NCBI GenBank assembly: GCA_017411325.1
Contig: JAFQQJ010000040.1
Location: 133,659 to 197,658 of the forward strand
Origin: Clostridia bacterium
GTDB lineage: Bacteria > Bacillota > Clostridia > CAKSNL01 > HGM11501
Length of the DNA stretch: 64,000 nucleotides
Direction: 5' to 3'
The position numbers were made by a program, and so were the translations under genes. Below, one piece after another: positions 12,011 to 20,095 of the stretch. The notes beneath the pieces were generated by a model. It searched no databases and was not told the DNA's origin. It was given only the letters and a program-made list of their open reading frames with translations. Positions within the stretch are counted from its first letter, which is position 1; every line of letters begins with the position of its first letter.

Positions 12011-13094
12011 TTTCTCCGCCGTTTACGAAAACTTCCATTATGTATTCATCGCGGAGAATTTTAATATCGCTTACCTCACCTTTATGAACCACGCTTTCTC
12101 TTCCGGTTCTCCCAATTTCAAAGCCGTCATCGGTCATTTTAAGTAAAGGATCACTGTCTTTAAGCAAGTGATGCACTTCTTCTACGGGATAGCCGTATAT
12201 CTTGCCGTTTTTCGTGAACATCTCGCGTGGTACCGACATACAGCCCACATCTTTTTCGGCATAGCCCTGATAGTCCCATCCGGGAATCCAGGTTATAAGA
12301 AGGCTTCTCCCCTTATGGTCACGGAATATCTGACCTGCATACCGGTCGGGGCCCCTGTCCACGTTTCCGCTTAATTCTGCCTTGAATTTTCCCTTTTCAA
12401 GCTTTCCGTACATCACGTTGAAAAAGTGCTTCCAGTCAGTTTTGCACACCGATGCCGCAAGTAGTATGCACTCTCCCTCGTCAATCAGTGAAGGACATTC
12501 CGCATATACAGAATCATCCCATTCAGCAATTATTCCGCCATAATTCCAGTTAAATAAATCTTCGCTTTCGTATATAAGCAAACGGCCCTTTTTAGTTTCC
12601 TTATGTCCCGTTGCCATAACAAGGCGGTATTTTCCGTCTATAAAGCAAACAGCAGGATCCCTGAAGTCAGGGCCTCCGTCTTCGGGGTAGGTTTTGATAA
12701 CGGGATTTTTTTCATACTTTTCAAAATTGATTCCGTCCTTTGAATATGCAATGCTGACAGACTGAACCGTTCCCGTTGTCACGGATGCGTAAAAAAGATA
12801 AAGCGTATCATCCTTTACGATTGCCGTTCCCGACCAGCAGCCCTCATTGTCATAGGGCTTGTCGGGTGAAAGCGCGACGGGGAGCTCCTCCCAGGAGATA
12901 AAATCCTTTGTTCTTGCGTGCCCCCAATAAACAGCTTCTTTCTTTGGAACTTCAAAGTTAGGACAATGCTGATAGAAAACGTGATAATAGCCGTCAAAAT
13001 AAACAAGACCGTTGGGATCGTTTATCCAACCCTTCTCCGGCTTAAAATGATACTTAAGCTTTTCTGAATAGTTCATAAAATTCACCTTACTCAA
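11988..13094 (-). CDS. glycoside hydrolase family 32 (beta-fructofuranosidase / sucrose-6-phosphate hydrolase-like), compact form
   Basis: GH32 signature blocks are WINDPNGLVYFDGYYHVFYQ, FRDP and the ECP acid/base motif (YAECPSL). At 368 aa its C-terminal part is shorter than usual. Confidence 0.8.
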   Translation of the reverse strand: MSKVNFMNYSEKLKYHFKPEKGWINDPNGLVYFDGYYHVFYQHCPNFEVPKKEAVYWGHARTKDFISWEELPVALSPDKPYDNEGCWSGTAIVKDDTLYLFYASVTTGTVQSVSIAYSKDGINFEKYEKNPVIKTYPEDGGPDFRDPAVCFIDGKYRLVMATGHKETKKGRLLIYESEDLFNWNYGGIIAEWDDSVYAECPSLIDEGECILLAASVCKTDWKHFFNVMYGKLEKGKFKAELSGNVDRGPDRYAGQIFRDHKGRSLLITWIPGWDYQGYAEKDVGCMSVPREMFTKNGKIYGYPVEEVHHLLKDSDPLLKMTDDGFEIGRTGRESVVHKGEVSDIKILRDEYIMEVFVNGGEIVYTVLL

Positions 13095-14328
13095 AAAGAC
13101 CTATATTTTCCCATTCCTTTTTGGGAACCAGCTTTCCGCCTGTAAGCCATACAATATGTGTGGCGTTCCCGTAATTTTCTATATCCGTAAACATCTTCCC
13201 CACACCGCCGAGGGCAACAGATGAAGATGGCTCCGCTTTTATCCTTGAAGTTTTATATAAAAGCCTTGTCAGGCTAAGGCTGTGCTCATCATCTATTGTA
13301 AAGCAACCGTCAAGCATACCTTTCATAACATTATACGCAAGACGCGAAGGGCTTGAGCACGCCAGACCATCCGCAACAGTTCCTTTTCCGAGACCGATAT
13401 CGTATACGCTGACATCGCTCCGTCCCTTTGCCATAGCAAGTGCCATACAGGGCATCTGGGTAGGCTCACCGAAGCAGCAATATACATTGTCGCCAAAGGC
13501 TTTTTTAAGACCGAAGGTTATTCCCCCGGGGCCTCCGCCAACTCCGCAGGGCAGATACACAATTAAAGGATGAGTGCTGTCCACCTTGATTTTCTTCTCC
13601 TTAAGCTGTTTTATAAGGGTTTTATACGCCGTGGAATATCCCAAAAACAAGTCCTTTGAATCCTCATCGTCAATAAAGAAGGTTTCGTCGTCCTTTAAGG
13701 CTTCACTTCTTGCCGTTTTCAACGCGGAGGTGTAATCGCCCTTAAATTCCACAACATTAACCCCGGCTCTCATAAGCTTATCCTTTTTCCACTTTTTTGC
13801 TTCCTCGGACATATAAACCGTAACATCAAAGCCAAGCTTTTTACCGGAAAGCCCGATGCTCATACCGAGATTTCCCGTTGAGCCGACGGATATTTTATAA
13901 TGAGAATAAAATTCCCTGTAATAGAAGCTGTCTATCACGTTATAATTGTCGGTTGTCTTAAGCATACCGTTTTTCATAGCAAGCTCTTCGGCATACTTAA
14001 AAACCGTATATATGCCGCCACGCGCCTTTAATGACCCGCACACCGCCAAGGAATCGTCACGCTTTACATATAAATCGCCCGGTATTTTAACATTTTCTGC
14101 TTTTTCAAGTTCCGCCTTTGTATCTTTTACAAGCTGAAGAGAGGAGTCAATTATTCCCTTTGTTTTCTTTGTTTCGGGAAAAGCAGCACGAACATAGGCT
14201 GAGAAGCGGTTAAGTCTCTCCCACGCATCGTCAATATCCTCCTGGGTAAGAATTTCTTCACCGCTTATTTTGTTGCAGTTAAAAAGCACTTCTTTCGCTT
14301 TCCTCATATCGGATATTATTTTTTCCAT
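13087..14328 (-). CDS. dsdA: D-serine ammonia-lyase (D-serine dehydratase)
   Basis: 413 aa and collinear with E. coli DsdA from memory. Shared blocks are the PLP-lysine block GSLKARGGIY, SVGSTGNLGMSIG, FFIDDEDSKDLFLGYS and YLPCGVGGGPGGITFGLK. Confidence 0.9.
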   Translation of the reverse strand: MEKIISDMRKAKEVLFNCNKISGEEILTQEDIDDAWERLNRFSAYVRAAFPETKKTKGIIDSSLQLVKDTKAELEKAENVKIPGDLYVKRDDSLAVCGSLKARGGIYTVFKYAEELAMKNGMLKTTDNYNVIDSFYYREFYSHYKISVGSTGNLGMSIGLSGKKLGFDVTVYMSEEAKKWKKDKLMRAGVNVVEFKGDYTSALKTARSEALKDDETFFIDDEDSKDLFLGYSTAYKTLIKQLKEKKIKVDSTHPLIVYLPCGVGGGPGGITFGLKKAFGDNVYCCFGEPTQMPCMALAMAKGRSDVSVYDIGLGKGTVADGLACSSPSRLAYNVMKGMLDGCFTIDDEHSLSLTRLLYKTSRIKAEPSSSVALGGVGKMFTDIENYGNATHIVWLTGGKLVPKKEWENIGLFE

Positions 14329-14388
14329 GTAGTTTTCCCCTTTCTAAAATGCCGGACGAACCAGACCATATGCCGAGCTTTTGTAATT

Positions 14389-14443
14389 ATTGCGACACAT
14401 AAGGTTTAGATGCAAACCTTTTTGGTGTCAAGTTCGTGTCAAG
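14389..14443. repeat. 55-bp direct repeat, copy a (upstream of dsdA)
   Basis: The sequence is attgcgacacataaggtttagatgcaaacctttttggtgtcaagttcgtgtcaag. By hand alignment it matches 17678-17732 at 46 of 55 positions. Confidence 0.85.
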
Positions 14444-14538
14444 TTAATACCCAAAAAATTGTTAACCCATTACAAAAATCTTTTGCTTTATCAAGCATTA
14501 TACTTTCTGCCATCTTATCACATCTATTAATTTATTTC

Positions 14539-14730
14539 AGCTAAATTTTGAACTAAAGTTCAAAACTAAATTATCTCATTTCATTCAATAGCTAAATAAC
14601 TCCTTTGGAGTAGCTAAATTAAATTCGCTTTTGTAGCTGACCGCAAGGGCAATTTAGCTACGAAGTAATTTAGCTGAACTTGTTCAATTTAGCTCGCGGT
14701 AGCGAATTTAGCTGCGTTGCCTTGCAACGC
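14539..14730. repeat. word/mini-hairpin array 1 (AGCTAAAT x3, then AATTTAGCT x4)
   Basis: AGCTAAAT occurs at 14539, 14590 and 14612. Its reverse complement AATTTAGCT occurs at 14651, 14667, 14686 and 14705. Different small stem-loops separate the words: ttttgaac-taaa-gttcaaaa, actcc-ttt-ggagt, ac-gaa-gt, gaa-cttg-ttc, cgc-ggta-gcg and gcgttgc-ctt-gcaacgc. Confidence 0.8.
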
Positions 14731-14989
14731 TCGTGTCAAGCCTGGTGAACAGTGAATAATAAGAACCATCACGAAATATAACGAAATCAAAGATTTCTAT
14801 ATTTCGGAGAACCTTGTTATGCTAAAGCATAATATAGACCTACTATTTTTCCCTTAATTTTTCACTGGATTTTCCTTAACCACTTTTCCTTAGAACCCGC
14901 GAGAATACTGAATTTTCTCGCATCCGATAGCATATGTAAATATCAAAATCGGCAAACTATTCTTTTAAATTGTATGGAATTGACACGAG
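14730..14989. repeat. about 250-bp structured repeat element E, copy 1 (MITE-like, 10-bp terminal inverted repeat)
   Basis: It is bounded by ctcgtgtcaa (14730-14739) and ttgacacgag (14980-14989). The interior matches 16769-17072. It contains the nested hairpin cgaaatata-ac-gaaatc-aaa-gatttc-tatatttcg, the hairpins ttatgc/gcataa and gcgagaa/ttctcgc, AGAACC x3 and TTTTCCTTA x3. Confidence 0.75.
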
Positions 14990-14995
14990 TAAAAG

Positions 14996-15739
14996 TTAAT
15001 AATCATAGTGTCCAAACACGCCAATTATATCATAATATTCAAAATGTCGGTCAAAGTCTAAATATAATTCTTCGCCATTCTCCAACTCTGCTACTCCCAA
15101 GTATCCACCGCTTTTAGTAAAATATAATTCATCTGAAAATGTTGGATGTTGTATTCTGTTTAATAATTCTGAATCTGCATAAACAAAGTCCTCATTTTTC
15201 ATTTGTTCTTTAATTTTCTCATCTAAAAAATTACCGCTTGCTACTTCGGATAACCCATTCGTTTCCTGCATATTCATAGCATTATTGTTATAGACCGAAA
15301 TAGTTTCATATAGTCTGACTTTGTTTATTTTCTCCATATACTTTTTGTCGTTTTCAGCAGACCAGATACACATTTCTTCTTTTTTATTTACAAGCTGTAT
15401 TGACTCTATGTTTTCAAATTCATCTTCAATTGCAAAAGAGTATCCGCCATTTCTATTATTAAAACCAAATAGCAAATTTTGCTTTATTCCCAAATAAAGA
15501 ACATTGTCTTTTATTTCATATGTATATCCAATATATGCTGTTGCACTACTTGAAGTATTGCCTATTATATGTACCGTTTCATCAGTAACATAAACTGTTT
15601 CAACACATAAAACATTTGGGCTTTCACACATATCAAACCCCAAAATTTTCCAACCATATCTTGCTGTTAAAAAAATAGCTAACTGCAAAATTAACAGAAT
15701 TGATAAAATAATTACAACTATCTTAAATATTTTCTTCAT
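14996..15739 (-). CDS. hypothetical membrane-anchored protein (islet cassette P1)
   Basis: ORF 14996..15769. The ATG at 15739 (MKKIFKIVVIILSILLILQLAIF) follows GAAAGGAG. It has one N-terminal TM helix, I see no recognisable domain, and the coding sequence is AT-rich. Confidence 0.6.
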   Translation of the reverse strand: MKKIFKIVVIILSILLILQLAIFLTARYGWKILGFDMCESPNVLCVETVYVTDETVHIIGNTSSSATAYIGYTYEIKDNVLYLGIKQNLLFGFNNRNGGYSFAIEDEFENIESIQLVNKKEEMCIWSAENDKKYMEKINKVRLYETISVYNNNAMNMQETNGLSEVASGNFLDEKIKEQMKNEDFVYADSELLNRIQHPTFSDELYFTKSGGYLGVAELENGEELYLDFDRHFEYYDIIGVFGHYDY

Positions 15740-15767
15740 TTGCAATACTCCTTTCGCAATATTCGAC

Positions 15768-15794
15768 ATTGCGAGGCATAAGGTTTAGATGCAA
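15768..15794. repeat. partial copy (left 27 bp) of the 55-bp repeat
   Basis: The sequence is attgcgaggcataaggtttagatgcaa. It overlaps the last codons and stop of cassette P2. Confidence 0.75.
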
Positions 15795-16165
15795 TTAGTT
15801 TTTCGCTTTATAATTAAATGCTTAATTACAAATTCAATCATCATAATTACTAAATAACTAATGCCATAAACAACTGTTGTAATAAAATAAGTTAATTCTC
15901 CTTCCAAATCATACCATATCTGTTTATCGACCAAACTATGATAATATAATTGTCCGTTTATACACATTCCCATCGAAGAAGCTACCAGAATGAGCAAACA
16001 ACCTATCAAAAATTCTTTTCGACTATTGCTTAAAAACAAATTCAAAATTGATACAATAAAAGTCCATATCCAAATTGTTTTCATAAAATCTGTTCCTGCA
16101 CTTCCAAAAACCACACATGGAACTAATATTGAAATGTTTATAACACTTAATAATACTTTTCTCAT
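15785..16165 (-). CDS. hypothetical small polytopic membrane protein (islet cassette P2)
   Basis: ORF 15785..16195. The ATG at 16165 (MRKVLLSVINISILV) follows GAAAGGAG. It has about 4 hydrophobic helices and no recognisable domain. Confidence 0.55.
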   Translation of the reverse strand: MRKVLLSVINISILVPCVVFGSAGTDFMKTIWIWTFIVSILNLFLSNSRKEFLIGCLLILVASSMGMCINGQLYYHSLVDKQIWYDLEGELTYFITTVVYGISYLVIMMIEFVIKHLIIKRKTNCI

Positions 16166-16223
16166 ATCAGCACTCCTTTCGACAAATTTCTCCATATAGT
16201 TCGTGTCAATTCAGGACTAAAAA

Positions 16224-16712
16224 TTATCTATCTGTCAGATAACTCTTTATTTTTTCAGAAGAAACTTTCACAAAATTATTTTTTAATTCTTCATTAGTAA
16301 AATGTATTTCTAAAAATTCTATATCCCTTATTTCTTCTCCATTTCGATAAACAGTTATGGCTCCGCTGCCGGTTGTGCCTCTCCCGGCCGGATATGTACG
16401 AATATATAAAAATTCCTTGTTAAACTGTAAATTCCTTCCGTCCTGACACCATAAATATGTTTGTTTCTCACTATATATACCGTTACAAATAACAACCGTA
16501 TATTCGTTCCCATCATTAAATGCAATATCTATCAAGGGATAATCCAATTGCCCAATTGCTTCATCAATAGGAGTATCATCAACTATCGCATTTTTTTCTA
16601 ATCTAAATTCATATTCTTTTTTTGCATTCTCAAATCCCGTTTGATAAAAAATACCGCTTGCCACAACCGTACAAAACACACATAAAACTATTAAGATTAT
16701 AAATCTTTTCAT
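16224..16712 (-). CDS. hypothetical secreted or anchored protein (islet cassette P3)
   Basis: ORF 16224..16733. The ATG at 16712 (MKRFIILIVLCVFCTVVASG) follows GAAAGGAAAG. It has a signal-like N-terminus and no recognisable domain. Confidence 0.55.
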   Translation of the reverse strand: MKRFIILIVLCVFCTVVASGIFYQTGFENAKKEYEFRLEKNAIVDDTPIDEAIGQLDYPLIDIAFNDGNEYTVVICNGIYSEKQTYLWCQDGRNLQFNKEFLYIRTYPAGRGTTGSGAITVYRNGEEIRDIEFLEIHFTNEELKNNFVKVSSEKIKSYLTDR

Positions 16713-16751
16713 TTCGCACTTTCCTTTCGCCAAAATTCGAGAATCTTATTA

Positions 16752-17072
16752 TTCGTGTCAAATCAGGAGAACAGTGAATAATAAGAACCATCACGAAATA
16801 TAACGAAATCAAAGATTTCTATATTTCGGAGAACCTTGTTACTCCGTAATAAGAACCATCACCCAACACGAAATCAAAGATTTCTATATTTCGGAGAATC
16901 TTGTTATGCTAAAGCATAATATAGACCTACTATTTTTCCCTGATTTTTTCAACTATTTTTCCTTTAACACTTTTCTTAGAACCCTCGAGAATACTGAATT
17001 TTCTCGCATCCGATAGTGTATGTAAATATCAAAATCGGCAAACTAATGTATTAAATTTTATAGACTTGACAC
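16752..17072. repeat. structured repeat element E, copy 2 (with internal tandem duplication of about 60-68 bp)
   Basis: The first 73 nt from gaacagtgaataataagaacc are identical to copy 1, and the rest is similar by eye. The block taataagaaccatcac...cggagaaycttgtta occurs twice, at 16779-16846 and 16847 to about 16906. The element is bounded by ttcgtgtcaa (16752) and ttgacac (17066). Confidence 0.75.
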
Positions 17073-17090
17073 ACTGCATACTTTATCTTA

Positions 17091-17576
17091 TTACCATCCG
17101 CGCTCTCTTCTATCTTCCCAATACTGTTCCGCAAATTCTACTGCGCCTTTCATCGCACTTTCTCTATTTTTCTTTTCCATTATATCATCGACATACATAC
17201 CAAATCCTACCGAGAGATATGCCTTGCCTTTTATACATTCACAAAAAAATTCTATATCTTCCATAGAAATATCGATTCCAATTGAAAGCTTTCTCCTAAA
17301 TTCACTTGCTGGATTTAACTTTATATATATAGCTTCTAACACCTCATCATCGTAACCCTTATTTACAAGATATTCTATTTCACTTTTTTTTGCTCTTTTG
17401 AATACAAACCAAAACTTATGCTCTAACTCATATTCATTGCCACAAAAGTTAGAATTTACCAACTCCCAACCAAGCGCCCCTTCTTTATTTAAAATTCGTT
17501 GTAATTTCTCCATATCAGGTTCTTCATCTTTTGTGTTGTTTACTTCTACATATTTCGTTTTATATTCCCAATACAT
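17091..17576 (-). CDS. hypothetical cytoplasmic protein with a DUF4177-like N-terminus (islet cassette P4)
   Basis: 161 aa. The N-terminus MYWEYKTKYVE...LNKEGALGWELV resembles DUF4177 as I remember it. The C-terminal half is unassigned. Confidence 0.5.
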   Translation of the reverse strand: MYWEYKTKYVEVNNTKDEEPDMEKLQRILNKEGALGWELVNSNFCGNEYELEHKFWFVFKRAKKSEIEYLVNKGYDDEVLEAIYIKLNPASEFRRKLSIGIDISMEDIEFFCECIKGKAYLSVGFGMYVDDIMEKKNRESAMKGAVEFAEQYWEDRRERGW

Positions 17577-17677
17577 TATACAAAATCTCCTTAATAAATA
17601 TTTTTATAAGCATCTCTCGATATATCTTTCTTTTAAAAGTTCATCCTTGAATATTAGACTTTTAATTTTCGATACAA

Positions 17678-17732
17678 ATTGCGAAGCATAAGGTTTAGAT
17701 GCAACTTATTTTAGTAGCAAGTTCGTGTCAAG
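17678..17732. repeat. 55-bp direct repeat, copy c (upstream of cassette P4)
   Basis: The sequence is attgcgaagcataaggtttagatgcaacttattttagtagcaagttcgtgtcaag. It matches 14389-14443 at 46 of 55 positions and is in the same orientation. Confidence 0.85.
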
Positions 17733-17800
17733 ACTGGGCCAAAAATTCACCTTATTTTATTCTATCACAAAATACCTGCCTTTTCAATAGAAACCGCATC

Positions 17801-17835
17801 AAAAAATTCCCGGAATGCAACATTCCTGGAATTTT
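17801..17835 (-). terminator. intrinsic terminator of the MFS gene
   Basis: On the minus strand, the sequence aaaaattccaggaatg-ttg-cattccgggaatttttt lies directly after the stop codon. Confidence 0.6.
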
Positions 17836-19065
17836 TCACGCCTTCTTTTTTTCTTTCATAAAGCTTATAAATACAGGGATTGCCATAAGCGGGAAAAGCA
17901 TACCGATAAGCATTCCGCATCGCATTCCGAGCTGCTCTGCTTCAAGCCCCATTTTTGATGCAAAATCTACAAGTGTCTCATTTCCCATTACCTTATCCGT
18001 TACTATTCCAAGCACCTGAGGAACAACAGATGCGCCCAGGTCTCCGCCCGATGCCATCATAGCATACATAAACACTCCGCCATGGGGTATTCTTTCAGAT
18101 GCCGAAATCAGATTGCCCGGCCAGAGCATTGATGTACAGAAGCCTGTGAGTGCGCAGGCTATAAGTGTCAGTATCGGAAACGGCGAAATTGCCGCCGTAA
18201 AGTAGCAAAACGTTGCACCTATGGCGCACATAAGTAAAACCTTGTTAATATTCTTCCCTATTTTAGCATACAGGCTTCGTCCCAGGCCCAGCATAAGGGA
18301 AAAGAGCGCCATACCGAAAATGTCCCCGAAAACCTTGGGGATTTTTGTAACCTCTTCAAGATAGCCGGAGCACCACTGCGCCATAGTACATTCTGCCGCA
18401 CCGCCTAAAAAGATTGCAAAGACCGAGGTTAAAAGGGCCTTGTTTTTAAGCTGGCTCAAAGCGCCTGTTACTTTTTCCGGAGTTTCCATTTCGGGGATTT
18501 TTGCACCCGCAAATAAAACTGCAGCAAATACAGGAACAACCGTTAAAATAAGGGATAATATGTACCAGTTTTCAGCTCCGAAAAGAACCAGAAACGCCGT
18601 TGCGAAAATTACAACTCCCACCACGCCCCAGGCGTAGATTGAATGGAGCTTACTCATTTCGCGGTCGGGGTCATCTGCAGGAATTGCCGCAATTACAGGG
18701 CTTATCAAAACCTCGCAAAGCCCGCCCGATGCCGAAAACACAATAGTTCCCAAAACTATGCCGTAAAAGGCGGTTTCAGGGCTTATAATGGGCCAGATTG
18801 AATAAATTAAAAGACCGATTATCGTAATTACCGGCGTAAGCTTTACCGTTTTTGCAATATTAAATTTATGGGAGAAAAAGGAAAATATCAGGTCAATTGT
18901 AAGCTGAGTGCAAAAATTAATAAGTACCAAAAGACCAAGAAGCGAAAAGGATATTCCGTAAAGCTCCCTGAATGTAAGAAAAAGTATGGGCGAAATATTT
19001 CCTACCACAGACATTGAAATATTTGTTCCATAGCAACCAAGTTTAACTCTTTTATTGTTGTCCAT
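17836..19065 (-). CDS. MFS transporter
   Basis: ORF 17836..19113. The ATG at 19065 (MDNNKRVKLGCYG) follows GAGGTGA. It has about 12 hydrophobic helices in two halves. Confidence 0.75.
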   Translation of the reverse strand: MDNNKRVKLGCYGTNISMSVVGNISPILFLTFRELYGISFSLLGLLVLINFCTQLTIDLIFSFFSHKFNIAKTVKLTPVITIIGLLIYSIWPIISPETAFYGIVLGTIVFSASGGLCEVLISPVIAAIPADDPDREMSKLHSIYAWGVVGVVIFATAFLVLFGAENWYILSLILTVVPVFAAVLFAGAKIPEMETPEKVTGALSQLKNKALLTSVFAIFLGGAAECTMAQWCSGYLEEVTKIPKVFGDIFGMALFSLMLGLGRSLYAKIGKNINKVLLMCAIGATFCYFTAAISPFPILTLIACALTGFCTSMLWPGNLISASERIPHGGVFMYAMMASGGDLGASVVPQVLGIVTDKVMGNETLVDFASKMGLEAEQLGMRCGMLIGMLFPLMAIPVFISFMKEKKKA

Positions 19066-19123
19066 TTCTGTCACCTCGGAATGCAGTATAGCACAAGCAA
19101 AGAGATAAATCAAGAACTAAAAT

Positions 19124-19155
19124 AAAAAAAGACCGCTTTCAAAAAAGCCGTCTTT
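19124..19155 (-). terminator. possible intrinsic terminator (minus strand) insulating the MFS gene from the repeat region
   Basis: On the minus strand, the stem aaagacggc/gcggtcttt (one mismatch) is followed by a T7 run. Confidence 0.35.
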
Positions 19156-19225
19156 CTTCAGCCATAGCCTACTAATTTACATCTTCCGGAAGGAGCAAGC
19201 CCCTTCCCTACAAACTATATATGGT

Positions 19226-19493
19226 ATAAATCCACACGCCGCAGGCGTATTTCATATTGCGAAGCAATATTTCACGCCCGAAGGGTATTTCACAATAGAT
19301 GCAGGTTATTTTAGTGATATTCCAACTTCGTTAGAGTGATATTTTTACAGAGTAAAAGTGATATTATATTTGCCATTAAACTGTGCGAAGCACAATATCA
19401 CTCGGTGTAATCCGAATATAACTGTGCAGCAATATAAACTTGCCAAAGGCAAATATAACTGAAAAAAGACATCCGAAGATGTCTTTTTTCTGG
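19226..19493. repeat. 268-bp word/mini-hairpin array unit R, copy 1
   Basis: It differs from 19608-19875 at 4 positions by hand alignment. Words are TATTTCAC x3, GTGATAT x3, ATATCAC x1 and ATATAA x3, separated by at least 9 small stem-loops. It ends in the terminator at 19462-19489. Confidence 0.9.
19462..19489. terminator. bidirectional intrinsic terminator hairpin (end of unit R copy 1)
   Basis: The sequence is aaaaaa-gacatc-cgaa-gatgtc-tttttt. Confidence 0.6.
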
Positions 19494-19607
19494 CTTTCAC
19501 GTACATAATAGATGCAGTATATTTTTAGTGAAATATCAACTTCGTTGATGTGAAATAATTTCTGTCGAAATTGTGAAATAGAAACCTAACGGTTTCTGTG
19601 AAATGAA
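19494..19607. repeat. array module S (GTGAAATA x4) between the two R copies
   Basis: GTGAAAT(A/G) occurs at 19528, 19550, 19573 and 19598. The copies are separated by atcaac-ttc-gttgat, aatttc-tgtc-gaaatt and gaaacc-taac-ggtttc. The leader cataatagatgcagtatattttta is paralogous to 19290-19313. Confidence 0.85.
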
Positions 19608-19875
19608 ATAAATCCACACGCCACAGGCGTATTTCATATTGCGAAGCAATATTTCACGCCCGAAGGGTATTTCACAATAGATGCAGGTTATTTTAGTGAT
19701 ATTCCAACTTCGTTGGAGTGATATTTTCACAGAGTAAAAGTGATATTATATTTGCCATTAAACTGTGCGAAGCACAATATCACTCGGTGTAATCCGAATA
19801 TAACTGCGCAGCAATATAAACTTGCCAAAGGCAAATATAACTGAAAAAAGACATCCGAAGATGTCTTTTTTCTGG
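19608..19875. repeat. 268-bp word/mini-hairpin array unit R, copy 2 (abuts tRNA-Leu)
   Basis: See copy 1. The terminator at 19844-19871 lies 1 nt from the tRNA CCA end. Confidence 0.9.
19844..19871. terminator. bidirectional intrinsic terminator, terminates tRNA-Leu on the minus strand
   Basis: The sequence aaaaaa-gacatc-cgaa-gatgtc-tttttt lies immediately 3' of the tRNA. Confidence 0.7.
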
Positions 19876-19961
19876 TGCCCGAGACCGGAATCGAACCGGT
19901 ACGACTTTTAACGGTCGCAGGATTTTAAGTCCTGTGCGTCTGCCAGTTCCGCCACTCGGGC
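19873..19961 (-). tRNA. tRNA-Leu, anticodon UAA, CCA encoded
   Basis: The minus-strand read is GCCCGAG-TG-GCGGAACTGGCAGACGC-A-CAGGA-CTTAAAA-TCCTG-long variable arm-ACCGG-TTCGATT-CCGGT-CTCGGGC-A-CCA. It folds as a class II cloverleaf with the anticodon loop CU-UAA-AA. Confidence 0.9.
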
Positions 19962-19975
19962 TTACCACGAAAAAT

Positions 19976-20004
19976 AGAATACCATAAATTAAAGCATTTG
20001 TCAA
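19976..20004 (-). promoter_or_regulatory. sigma-A-type promoter for tRNA-Leu
   Basis: On the minus strand there is TTGACA, a 17-nt spacer, then TGgTATTCT (extended -10). It ends about 15 nt before the tRNA 5' end. Confidence 0.55.
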
Positions 20005-20054
20005 GAGTTATTTGCTTTTTTCGGGGCTTTTTTCTGAAAATATCAGATAAAAAA

Positions 20055-20092
20055 ACAAATCCGATTGCAAAGCAATCGGATTTGTAATAAGC
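20055..20092 (-). terminator. intrinsic terminator of the large ABC locus
   Basis: On the minus strand, acaaatccgattgc-ttt-gcaatcggatttgt is followed by a T7 run, just after the stop at 20096. Confidence 0.7.
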
Positions 20093-20095
20093 TTT

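Follow-up and report, generated by a model that had tools for sequence, protein, structure and literature searches.

Chromosomal integrons, super-integrons and CALINs are arrays of compact, co-oriented, mostly orphan and AT-rich ORFs. Super-integron arrays carry attC repeats of the VCR type, CALINs are clusters of attC sites without an integrase, and attC sites are conserved in structure while their sequence varies. To our knowledge, integrons are essentially unreported in Clostridia. Short intergenic repeats such as enterobacterial REP/BIME, pneumococcal BOX and the Correia elements of Neisseria consist of palindromic units, occur throughout the genome, and are each limited to one species or genus. 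Two further cassette-like systems have been described. The rAID-1 clusters of Bacteroidales are defined by a XerD-like recombinase at the 5′ end (Ross et al., bioRxiv 10.1101/471110). In Acinetobacter, gene modules that include toxin–antitoxin genes and small ORFs lie between pdif/dif sites of about 28 bp and are shuffled between replicons, with XerCD acting in trans and not encoded nearby (PMC6449649, PMC13141974).

The locus analysed here lies in a 64 kb window (the whole stretch of DNA that was analysed). A preliminary description of it had noted an AT-rich islet between dsdA and an MFS gene, holding four orphan genes and structured repeats, bracketed by 55 bp direct repeats, and with no recombinase in the window. 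All of these observations were reproduced. The 55-mers, at 14389–14443 and 17678–17732, are equal at 46 of 55 positions (84% identity). The left one sits where a dsdA promoter or leader would be expected, within a junction element 60 nt 5′ of the dsdA start, and the right one lies in front of the first islet gene. GC content is 0.29–0.34 at about 14500–17750, compared with 0.42–0.48 in the flanks; the four islet ORFs have GC contents of 0.28–0.33, against 0.38–0.49 for all of the other 46 window ORFs of at least 100 aa. Family matches support the identity of both flanking genes. The four bracketed genes have no Pfam, NCBIfam or PADLOC family apart from a weak DUF4177 match in ORF4, and a search of 5.8 billion protein clusters recovered ORF4 itself and no other relative. 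None of the genes called in the window from about 2.8 to 64 kb is assigned to a recombinase, integrase or transposase family, and no such family is among those listed for the 50 window ORFs.

Parts of the islet

The features of the region are as follows, in the direction of transcription.

17836–19113, minus strand: MFS transporter gene (PF07690 MFS_1, E = 1.4e-14), GC 0.44; normal-GC flank upstream of the array
17812–17826, minus strand: terminator-like hairpin 3′ of the MFS gene, from a consensus scan
17759–17787, minus strand: best sigma-70-like site of the region, 10 of 12 positions matching
17676–17749, minus strand: junction element R, holding the right 55-mer (nhmmer, cross-species profile, E = 1.3e-17)
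17091–17576, minus strand: ORF4, 161 aa, GC 0.33; the weak DUF4177 match is N-terminal
16753–17072, minus strand: non-coding element B, about 320 nt, from repeat comparison
16713–16761, minus strand: core-less junction before ORF3 (leader profile match at 16720–16740, E = 6e-4)
16224–16712, minus strand: ORF3, 162 aa, with an N-terminal hydrophobic segment, GC 0.32
16166–16227, minus strand: core-less junction between ORF3 and ORF2 (profile matches at 16188–16227 and 16172–16190)
15785–16165, minus strand: ORF2, 126 aa, predicted multi-pass membrane protein, GC 0.28
15740–15802, minus strand: junction element M (profile match, E = 4e-10)
14996–15739, minus strand: ORF1, 247 aa, with an N-terminal membrane anchor, GC 0.30
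14731–14994, minus strand: non-coding element A (about 260 nt), paralogous to element B, from repeat comparison
14475–14730, minus strand: non-coding AGCTAAATT block of six units, 81–91% identical to blocks in seven other species
14388–14461, minus strand: junction element L, holding the left 55-mer (profile match, E = 1.3e-19)
13087–14328, minus strand: dsdA, encoding D-serine ammonia-lyase (NCBIfam equivalog, 512 bits; cut-off 246), GC 0.44; flank of normal GC on the downstream side of the array

Read on the gene strand, the junction element consists of a T-run, a CTAAC-TTGACACGAAC box, about 10 variable bases, an A-run, an invariant 27 nt core (TTGCATCTAAACCTTATG-NN-TCGCAAT), and the leader of the following cassette (…TGTCGAAnnTTGnCGAAAGGAG…ATG), which includes a ribosome-binding site. 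Element R has its T-run at 17740–17748, its TTGACACGAAC box at 17721–17732 and its core at 17678–17704, which reads TTGCATCTAAACCTTATG-CT-TCGCAAT on the minus strand. In element L, the T-run is at 14450–14461, TTGACAC boxes are at 14422–14443 and the core is at 14389–14415 (…ATG-TG-TCGCAAT). Element M lacks a TTGACAC box; its core is at 15768–15794 (…ATG-CC-TCGCAAT), and the ORF1 leader with its ribosome-binding site comes next. By direct reading, the stop codon of ORF2 is the TAA within this core. The other two junctions lack a core. At one, a T-run right after the ORF3 stop is followed by a TTGACACGAAC box (16199–16209) and then the ORF2 leader and ribosome-binding site, while at the other a TTGACACGAA box (16752–16761) runs straight into the ORF3 leader and its ribosome-binding site. 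The internal half-copies that had been claimed are present, the left part at 15768–15802 and the right-hand motif at 16199/16200 and 16752.

These sequences are concentrated in the islet. The 18-mer CATAAGGTTTAGATGCAA has three exact copies in the 64 kb window, compared with 0.15 expected even at three mismatches. The right-hand motif TTCGTGTCAA occurs at 14433, 16200, 16752 and 17722 and, allowing one mismatch, at 14422, 14730 and 14980; seven of its nine window matches are within the islet. Profile HMMs built from the copies in other species found the element in the window only at 14388–14459, 15766–15802, 16188–16227 and 17676–17749, and the leader profile matched only 5′ of ORF1–3.

The structured repeats of the islet comprise the non-coding elements of about 260–320 nt and a six-fold AATTTAGCT/AGCTAAATT array (14539–14713). 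Elements A and B (14731–14994 and 16753–17072) are 86–96% identical. Element B has an inverted TTGACAC box at its start, two copies of a 68 nt hairpin module and a TTGACACGAA box at its end; at least 12 further species have homologues, whose orientation with respect to the cores never varies. Element A contains one hairpin (GCGAGAA/TTCTCGC), with two compensatory pair changes in other species. Each AGCTAAATT unit is spaced by a different small hairpin, so that the block resembles Gut-1 (Rfam RF01706; PMC2864571), in which a short unit recurs 3–6 times and every spacer has a small hairpin of its own. Blocks of ATATCGA and GCGATATA beside cores in other species have the same Gut-1-like architecture. 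The islet AGCTAAATT blocks gave no score against RF01706, and the function of the Gut-1 RNA motif itself is not known (PMC2864571). True Gut-1 matches also occur in the window, 1.5 kb away.

The junction element in other Clostridia

Species-representative genomes contain the 18-mer core, without mismatch, in more than 117 stretches. Of at least 149 core copies, 142 have the conserved TCGCAAT flank, which lay outside the 18-mer query, and these represent at least 112 loci in at least 93 species-representative Clostridia assemblies; about 5 copies, among the matches listed, are chance matches in unrelated phyla. The comparison genomes are all metagenome-assembled, the loci are 8 kb blocks, and ORF calling was crude. 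A locus often has 2–5 core copies, with short low-GC ORFs as neighbours, and in all 22 loci with several exact copies every copy is on the same strand. The gene upstream of the core is co-oriented with it in 96 cases versus 9, and the downstream gene in 93 versus 24. Between the upstream stop codon and the core the median distance is 43 nt, and the T-run begins directly at this stop in 26 of 43 box-type elements. The 24 cores that are followed by a convergent gene or by nothing fit a site 3′ of a cassette better than they fit a promoter or leader.

Core-adjacent ORFs are short (median 172–185 aa versus 259) and low in GC (median 0.32–0.34 versus 0.40, p = 3e-28), and the neighbouring ORFs are highly diverse, with 864 ORFs falling into 678 clusters. 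The recurrent families (DUF559 nuclease, WapI-like immunity, Fic/Doc with Phd, 23S_rRNA_IVP and GDPD) are those typical of integron or immunity arrays. No recurring recombination enzyme was present among the 274 ORFs of 44 array loci. Several module types adjoin the core: box (60), DUF559-end (32), short-repeat (8) and other (37) upstream, and leader (45) and module ii (20) downstream.

No conserved secondary structure of the element was detected (RNAalifold −0.41 kcal/mol, no covarying pair), and candidate T-run/GTTC stems were not retained across copies, indicating that the primary sequence rather than a structure is conserved. As we read it, the core is weakly palindromic, with 6 of 11 arm positions matching, which sets it apart from the usual core sites of recombinases. 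The element matches no Rfam family, and a literature search found no description of it.

Cassette transfer and possible roles of the element

The cassettes and non-coding modules of the islet are 78–91% identical in nucleotide sequence to their counterparts in other species, whereas housekeeping genes of the same genomes are 65–73% identical. The ORF3 cassette shares 91.1% nucleotide identity with locus L111 of another species, compared with 66.8% for rhaA of the same two genomes. The ORF1 cassette is 78–87% identical to those at loci L038 and L006 of other species, where its neighbours differ, and the non-coding modules reach 81–91%; dsdA is 71–73% identical to its orthologues. L006 and L038 have the same two cassettes, separated by 2.7 kb and 0.54 kb of differing DNA respectively, with divergence from the core onward. 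At L124, in another species, an array with the same junctions is downstream of dsdA, not upstream. The earlier reading of the islet as foreign, cassette-structured DNA was borne out; the repeats fall exactly at cassette boundaries, and relatives have different cassettes beside the same repeat. Gene order around dsdA is not conserved among species. No empty site with MFS gene, repeat and dsdA adjacent was found, owing to this lack of synteny and to there being one strain of the species on record; for the latter reason, neither excised circles nor polymorphism within the species were observed.

The ends of homology blocks between genomes were also located. Of 374 3′ ends, 121 (32%) fall at +22 to +30 from the core start, compared with 0.24% expected, a pile-up at the core 3′ edge that is partly expected because BLAST extends through an identical core. 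Of 318 5′ ends, 68 are at the core start or core 3′ edge. As far as such alignments can resolve them, the junctions are placed at the core, at no finer position within it, a pattern that would fit either site-specific or homologous exchange.

We give roughly even odds to the reading we favour, in which cassettes of an integron-like system are joined at the element. The core would be a double-stranded DNA site for the insertion, loss and exchange of cassettes, with one core kept on the 3′ end of each cassette, like attC in integrons. The recombination enzyme would be encoded elsewhere in the genome and could be a site-specific recombinase acting in trans, like Xer on dif modules, or a sequence-specific nuclease that stimulates recombination between the conserved junctions of about 100 nt. 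The core-less junctions at 16199–16209 and 16752–16761 would be fused cassettes. Each cassette would supply its own ribosome-binding site, and the array would be read through from a promoter 5′ of the first junction. The candidate, judged from its sequence, is the site at 17759–17787 just 5′ of element R (TTGAAA, a 17 nt spacer and TAGAAT, with TG preceding the −10 box), which may serve the whole array. Against such a system, no recombination enzyme is among the families recorded for the window or recurs in the 44 array loci, and the core is weakly palindromic. Moreover, unrelated cassettes also have a conserved leader and ribosome-binding site in common, which might indicate that expression is a shared function.

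That function is central to a possible but unlikely alternative, in which the box, core and leader together would act as a common promoter/operator or 5′-UTR, co-mobilised with accessory genes. One regulator, alternative sigma factor or RNA-binding protein would co-ordinate or silence these genes, and cassettes would reassort at the element as the sole homology available for ordinary recombination after DNA uptake. A co-oriented gene follows the element in 93 of 117 cases, its start codon a median of 47 nt away, and the element has a perfect TTGACA hexamer, then a conserved leader with a strong ribosome-binding site. Conservation of primary sequence, as for a protein-binding site, and the lack of a recombinase linked to the arrays also agree with regulation. 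However, neither TTGACA has an acceptable −10 box 16–18 nt 3′ of it, and a sigma-70 scan gave no excess over shuffled sequence and zero sites in the element itself. The position of the core follows the stop codon of the preceding ORF more closely than the start codon of the next one, and the 24 terminal cores are followed by a convergent gene or by nothing. In addition, ORF2 and ORF3 of the window and the first L124 cassette have box and leader without a core, which is therefore dispensable for their expression, and 27 invariant bases among species whose genes are 65–73% identical exceed the usual need of an operator or promoter. The preliminary description had raised the possibility of a generic promoter element at many genes: the element does adjoin many unrelated genes, but it is no general promoter, since within the window it is confined to the islet, and across species it marks short low-GC genes.

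We consider it rather improbable that the element is a selfish mosaic repeat of the REP/BIME, BOX or MITE kind with no part in gene movement. Boxes, core, module ii, hairpin arrays and the 260 nt element would then be small non-autonomous elements that multiply within and between genomes and build up in AT-rich accessory regions. The many combinations of modules on either side of the core are consistent with this, as are the precise presence or absence of a unit of about 42 nt (TTGACACC…GTGTCGCAA) between box and leader, the inverted TTGACACG boxes at both ends of the 260 nt element, and the breaking of same-strain contigs at these repeats in several assemblies. Random MITE insertion would not be expected to give about 90% fixed orientation relative to genes or T-runs abutting stop codons, the core has no hairpin and no evident target duplication, and about 45 other intergenic regions of the window lack a copy. 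Moreover, genes too are common to several species at high identity, ending at the core. Like REP/BIME, BOX and Correia elements and ‘mobile promoters’, these are short intergenic modules in varied order before unrelated genes; unlike the first three, the core is not palindromic, is confined to accessory arrays in fixed orientation, and is invariant across several genera.

A single insertion of one integrative element at a dsdA-proximal att site, with the 55-mers as attL and attR, accounts for direct repeats around AT-rich DNA but is highly improbable and already contradicted by copy number and distribution: the core has 142 or more copies, spread over at least 93 other species and beside hundreds of unrelated genes, a third core and two half-junctions lie inside the islet, dsdA orthologues of four other species have no copy of the element upstream, individual islet cassettes have separate relatives in different species, and no integrase is among the recorded or listed gene families of the window.

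Relation to described systems

The integron-like reading can be set against the systems introduced above. The Clostridia arrays share with integrons the compact, co-oriented, mostly orphan, AT-rich ORFs, a conserved repeat at or beside each cassette's stop codon that moves with the 3′ end, toxin–antitoxin cassettes, reassorted cassettes common to several species, some of them fused by site loss, and apparently a promoter upstream of the array. They differ in having no IntI-type integrase or attI beside them and no attC-like imperfect hairpin in a repeat whose 27 nt core is invariant across at least 93 species, and in being short (2–8 cassettes), with several per genome at different loci. Like rAID-1 clusters, they occur in gut bacteria and consist of co-directional small low-GC genes. 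Some of the cargo is similar to immunity genes of polymorphic toxins, with WapI-like genes in 3 cassettes of arrays elsewhere; none of the four window ORFs matched an immunity family. Unlike rAID-1 clusters, they have no XerD-like recombinase, and both phylum and repeat sequence are different. As with pdif modules, discrete modules are bounded by short conserved sites with no recombinase nearby, but pdif has clear 11-6-11 Xer sites, alternately inverted and on plasmids, whereas the Clostridia sites are all direct and chromosomal. The core has weak similarity to dif sequences, which is a lead only.

The islet is best explained as a short array of horizontally acquired cassettes between the MFS gene and dsdA, with the 55-mers as the first and last copies of the junction. 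This junction element, apparently new to the literature, is conserved almost invariantly between AT-rich, horizontally exchanged small cassettes in 93 or more uncultured species of gut Clostridia.

Layout and composition of the islet

Every gene of the region is on the minus strand, which is the direction in which the locus is described. From the MFS gene, the order is a terminator-like hairpin, the right 55-mer, ORF4, a 320-nt non-coding element, ORF3, ORF2, ORF1, a 260-nt paralogue of the 320-nt element, a AGCTAAATT repeat block, the left 55-mer and dsdA.

Features of the islet and its flanks (window coordinates)
19113..17836, minus strand: MFS gene, upstream flank of the array
17826..17812, minus strand: terminator-like hairpin after the MFS gene
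17676-17749: junction element R, containing the right 55-mer (17678-17732)
17091-17576: ORF4
16753-17072: non-coding element of about 320 nt
15768-15794: core M, the third core, between ORF2 and ORF1
14731-14994: non-coding element of about 260 nt
14388-14461: junction element L, containing the left 55-mer (14389-14443)
14328..13087, minus strand: dsdA, downstream flank of the array

What the preliminary description observed was confirmed in full. The identities of dsdA and the MFS gene hold, the two 55-mers are identical at 46 of 55 positions, and the reported half-copy proved to be a third copy of their left part, between ORF2 and ORF1. The islet is AT-rich, with a GC content of 0.29-0.34 in a sliding window against 0.42-0.48 in the flanks. 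The four islet ORFs have GC contents of 0.28-0.33, and none of the remaining 46 ORFs of 100 aa or more falls outside 0.38-0.49. All four are orphans, without a family match beyond a weak DUF4177 hit for ORF4, and no recombinase is found among the families recorded for the window's genes (called genes from about 2.8 to 64 kb). For ORF4, 5.8 billion protein clusters were searched, at a sensitivity that the word index restricts, and nothing related other than ORF4 itself was found.

Three exact copies of the 18-mer CATAAGGTTTAGATGCAA lie in the window, where 0.15 copies would be expected even with up to three mismatches. The right-hand motif TTCGTGTCAA is found at the ORF4, ORF3/ORF2 and dsdA junctions, and at both ends of the non-coding elements. 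ORF2 runs into core M, its stop codon being the TAA of TTGCATCTAA (15785-15794). The window's species is represented by one strain on record. Assemblies of this strain from other samples (L002, L003, L004 and L132-L135) break within the islet, at the core, at a hairpin module, or inside ORF1 or ORF2; such breaks are as expected for repeats, but could also hide population heterogeneity.

Anatomy and distribution of the junction element

Aligned on the core, the copies share the invariant part (A)AAAGGTT-TGCATCTAAACCTTATG-YN-TCGCAAT, and the element is seen to be modular. On the upstream side, 60 of 137 copies are of the box type, consisting of a T-run, CTAAC, TTGACACGAAC, about 10 variable bases and an A-run; the other types are the 3′ end or remnant of a DUF559 gene with hairpins, an array of short units and hairpins, or other sequence. 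On the downstream side many copies have a conserved leader, (ATGGATA)TGTCGAAnnTTGnCGAAAGGAG, with a start codon 6-9 nt behind it; the alternative is a second core-like module (TGGCATCYAGATTATACAGTCTTTATA). All the variants are represented in the window: R and L have a full box with the core, M has core and leader but no box, and ORF2 and ORF3 are preceded by box-leader fusions that lack the core. This core-less junction also occurs in L124 and L035, two of the numbered 8-kb loci from other species. A 42-nt unit of the element is likewise present in some junctions and absent from others.

The sole variable core positions, 19-20 (14395-14396, 15774-15775 and 17684-17685 in the window), are dimorphic: TG in 81 copies, CC in 68 and TA in 19, with few single-step intermediates. 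The dinucleotide is linked to neither neighbouring cassette (12 of 60 and 6 of 21 pairs identical, against 0.32 by chance), and such linkage was therefore rejected as a way to locate a crossover.

A structured RNA or an attC-like hairpin was rejected from RNAalifold and explicit pair counts. RNAalifold on 51 elements gave −0.41 kcal/mol and no covarying pair, and the candidate stems are not kept. Changes in the upstream half of an AAGGTTT/AAACCTT stem have no compensating counterpart, the downstream half being invariant. In our own reading as 11-6-11 the core is palindromic at 6 of 11 positions, but by the structure tests it is not palindromic. With Rfam at E ≤ 1, the islet (14389-17732) gave one match only, snoR24-like, with 31.6 bits against a threshold of 55, and the elements of 18 other loci gave none at the gathering score. 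A micro-ORF in the core (…LHLNLM-x-RN…) was also rejected, since the first two codon positions vary and the third is constant. As sequence is conserved and structure is not, the likely partner of the element is a protein that recognises DNA in double-stranded form (or a linear RNA sequence).

Although TTGACA is present in the element, there is no −10 box at the right distance (16-18 nt), and a sigma-70 promoter was rejected on this ground. A sigma-70 scan returned 19 sites, against 19.4 in shuffled sequence, none of them within the element. The best (17759-17787) lies just upstream of element R and is a candidate promoter before the first junction. Of several alternative-sigma consensus sequences compared (sigma-H, -D, -F/G, ECF and sigma-54), none appears to fit with the right spacing across copies.

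The exact 18-mer was then scanned in a collection of species-representative genomes; more than 117 stretches were listed, so copy numbers are lower bounds. At least 142 of 149 copies have TCGCAAT two positions downstream, bases that lie outside the query. About five copies lack it (in Nostoc, Cyclobacteriaceae, Campylobacterota and Pelotomaculum), roughly the number expected by chance. The true copies occupy at least 112 loci in at least 93 assemblies, each representing a different species, and their hosts are all uncultured gut Clostridia. The carrier genomes, which are metagenome-assembled, include Congzhengia, Ructibacterium, Ca. Aphodoplasma, Ca. Ornithomonoglobus, Acutalibacteraceae and Oscillospiraceae. 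Blastn against 72,556 plasmids and 50,697 phages gave no match to the element, and 2.9 million viral contigs contained one real copy; an origin from phage or plasmid was rejected accordingly. In the searchable literature the core sequence appeared in no paper, and arrays of this kind were not found described for Clostridia.

The surroundings of the element were examined in 8-kb loci with simple longest-ORF calls. Copies within one locus are all on one strand, and genes are co-oriented with the element both upstream (96 versus 9) and downstream (93 versus 24). The median distance from the upstream stop codon to the core is 43 nt, and in 26 of 43 box-type elements the T-run follows that codon immediately. 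Followed by a convergent gene or by nothing are 24 cores, typically the last of an array. ORFs adjoining cores are shorter and much poorer in GC (0.32-0.34) than those of the same loci at distances above 1.5 kb (0.40; p = 3e-28). Two or more copies (up to two mismatches to the 18-mer) are present in 44 loci, spaced 450-1100 nt apart; the array ORFs range from about 75 aa up to several hundred, most being shorter than 250 aa. Neighbouring ORFs are very diverse, 864 of them forming 678 clusters with 564 singletons. The cargo includes orphans, Phd/Doc, WapI-like immunity proteins and a selfish-looking nuclease, and no recombinase recurs among the 274 ORFs of the 44 array loci.

Reassortment of cassettes and non-coding modules

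Cassettes move between species, and particular ones recur in different species beside different neighbours. ORF1 has homologues in L038 and L006 with 78-87% nucleotide identity, the similarity extending from the core or leader to a few bases past the stop codon. Between the ORF3 cassette and L111 the identity is 91.1%, against 66.8% for rhamnose isomerase in this pair of genomes; dsdA and its orthologues are 71-73% identical. The AGCTAAATT block is 81-91% identical in seven species and the 260-nt element 73-90% identical in a dozen, each in constant orientation relative to the cores. The islet's non-coding pieces are mobile modules as well.

The ends of similarity blocks between genomes pile up at the core. 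Their 3′ ends fall within 9 nt of its 3′ edge in 121 of 374 cases, against 0.24% expected, and 68 of 318 5′ ends fall at the core start or its 3′ edge. This pile-up is partly due to the core being identical everywhere. L006 and L038 carry the same two cassettes with different inserts between them, the difference beginning at the core.

The element is absent upstream of dsdA in four orthologues, and in L124 an array with these junctions lies downstream, not upstream, of the dsdA orthologue. The left 55-mer is therefore part of the islet rather than of dsdA. In a search for an empty site, all contigs with the exact dsdA, ORF2 or ORF4 protein came from the same strain and carried the same array, and a metagenome scan yielded one short relative, with no element upstream of its dsdA. 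Orthologues of dsdA at 76-79% identity have unrelated neighbourhoods.

A 56.9-kb contig, JAZQHR010000057.1 (L010/L011), has an identical 946-nt segment at both ends, consisting of core, GDPD cassette, box and core. Either the replicon is circular, or assembly halted at a duplicated cassette.

The commonest cassette encodes DUF559 (PF04480, a Vsr-fold nuclease), with 16 segments in 15 loci by tblastn and none in the window. All are in array orientation, on the element's strand, and ten end 19-49 nt before a core.

DUF559 genes (element-orientation coordinates)
L011, 5632-5997
L045, 1428-1793
L032, 962-1342
L035, 779-1144
11 other loci

These genes are bounded by inverted double-hairpin repeats, and many 200-nt remnants of their 3′ ends stand in front of cores. 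The count of 32 for the 'DUF559-end' module overstates intact genes, the members beyond the 16 segments being remnants or related hairpin modules. These features suggest a selfish, perhaps homing-type, nuclease.

A hairpin array is found in the 1-kb spacer upstream of the MFS gene (19114-20095, minus strand).

Features of the spacer upstream of the MFS gene
19873-19961, minus strand: tRNA-Leu(TAA)
19608-19875 and 19226-19493: 268-nt block after the tRNA, in two tandem copies, 98.5% identical
19390-19461: Rfam Gut-1 motif, 32 bits
19224-19295: Rfam Gut-1 motif, 55 bits (gathering score 50)

In the 268-nt blocks the heptamers GTTATAT, ATATCAC, GTGAAAT and ATTTCAC form chains; each heptamer occurs three to four times, and the small hairpin differs from spacer to spacer. 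At its end every chain carries …CTGCATCTAT…, a sequence similar to the islet core TTGCATCTAAAC. The blocks had no homologue among the compared loci. The same design, a short unit with a different hairpin per spacer, directly adjoins cores in many species, and also occurs at 14475-14730 in the window. The unit is constant within an instance and differs between instances, being ATATCGA in L024, L030, L109, L116 and L118, and GCGATATA or CGATAT in L023, L034 and L106. Gut-1 may belong to a wider class, so far undescribed, that is associated with these arrays.

The conserved non-coding element, of about 165-320 nt and without an Rfam family, is present in the window at 14731-14994 and 16753-17072. 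It has homologues in L005, L112, L078, L037, L077, L118, L068, L083, L016, L086 and L122, in the last directly downstream of the dsdA orthologue. It starts with an inverted TTGACACG box, holds 0-2 copies of a 68-nt hairpin module, and forms one hairpin with two compensatory pair changes (GCGAGAA/TTCTCGC versus GCAGGAA/TTCCTGC).

Candidate mechanism and relation to known systems

An integron has an IntI-family tyrosine recombinase with attI and Pc beside the array. Its attC sites are imperfect inverted repeats (R″-L″…L′-R′) that fold as hairpins, with structure conserved and sequence variable. The islet-type arrays are similar in being compact, co-oriented cassettes with a conserved site at each 3′ end that reassort between arrays, in carrying cargo of the usual kind, and in having a candidate promoter ahead of the first junction. 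They differ in that no recombinase lies beside them, either among the window's genes or in the 274 array ORFs, and in that the element has 27 invariant nt instead of the attC hairpin. rAID-1 of Bacteroidales is defined by a 5′ XerD-like recombinase more than 44% identical to BF9343_RS08045, and by two or more low-GC genes downstream of it, co-directional and separated by repetitive sequence (bioRxiv 10.1101/471110). The islet shares the co-directional low-GC genes and the repetitive intergenic sequence, but neither it nor the array loci have a linked recombinase. Cargo of rAID-1 is enriched in toxin-immunity genes; the four window ORFs have no family, and WapI-like immunity occurs in three cassettes elsewhere. 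An Xer/dif module has a 28-bp site with XerC and XerD arms similar to the dif site of its host. In our own reading the similarity of the core to dif sequences appears weak. Closest in logic are the dif modules of Acinetobacter, which have no linked enzyme (PMC6449649, PMC13141974); being Xer-dependent, they follow the same principle as the enzyme in trans proposed here. The finding is one of cassette arrays with conserved junction repeats, which are not a member of any of the families compared.

Since no integrase is adjacent and there is no attC-like fold, we propose the core as a junction site that would be used by an enzyme acting in trans, a reading to which we give about an even chance. 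Alternatively, a nuclease might trigger recombination between the conserved junctions. That gut Clostridia own an integron-like cassette exchange, with a 27-nt invariant, non-hairpin DNA site and an enzyme encoded away from the arrays, is a more tentative proposal, which we consider possible but not probable. The enzyme of such a system may be the small DUF559 (Vsr-fold) nuclease, homing-type on the core, or a housekeeping recombinase, and cleavage or crossover would take place at the central dinucleotide (TG/CC), which is dimorphic and unlinked to either flank.

The element could instead be regulatory and co-mobilised. We regard this as unlikely, and no correctly spaced sigma-70 promoter was found in it; in that case a 27-mer kept unchanged across 93 or more species would nevertheless be a new cis-element worthy of note. 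Repeats of the REP/BIME, BOX or MITE type have a palindromic unit, or terminal inverted repeats with target duplication, and are scattered over intergenic regions. A selfish mosaic repeat of this type is consistent with the mosaic modules, the inverted TTGACACG ends of the 260-nt element and the variable presence of the 42-nt unit, and REP/BIME and BOX share this modularity. However, the core is not palindromic and within the window the element is confined to the islet, while REP/BIME and BOX lack its fixed orientation, its confinement to accessory arrays and its cross-genus invariance. We consider a selfish repeat quite improbable. For the attL and attR of an integrative element, one would expect a repeat pair unique to its two ends, an integrase inside and a single copy at the empty site. 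The suggestion that the 55-mers are an attL/attR-like pair is not supported, given the internal copies in the islet, at least 142 copies in other species and the lack of an integrase among the families recorded for the window's genes, and its literal form is very improbable.

Integrons are, to our knowledge, essentially unreported in Bacillota. If the core is a recombination site, these arrays would represent a cassette-capture system in this phylum, with a site defined by sequence rather than structure and no linked integrase. The 27-nt core would then serve as a tag for harvesting cassettes from metagenomes, and DUF559 proteins and Gut-1-like repeat-hairpin arrays would gain a candidate function. 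Such a system would also explain the small accessory genes (immunity-like, toxin-antitoxin, nuclease and orphan membrane proteins) that are common to genera of uncultured gut Clostridia from ruminants, birds and humans.
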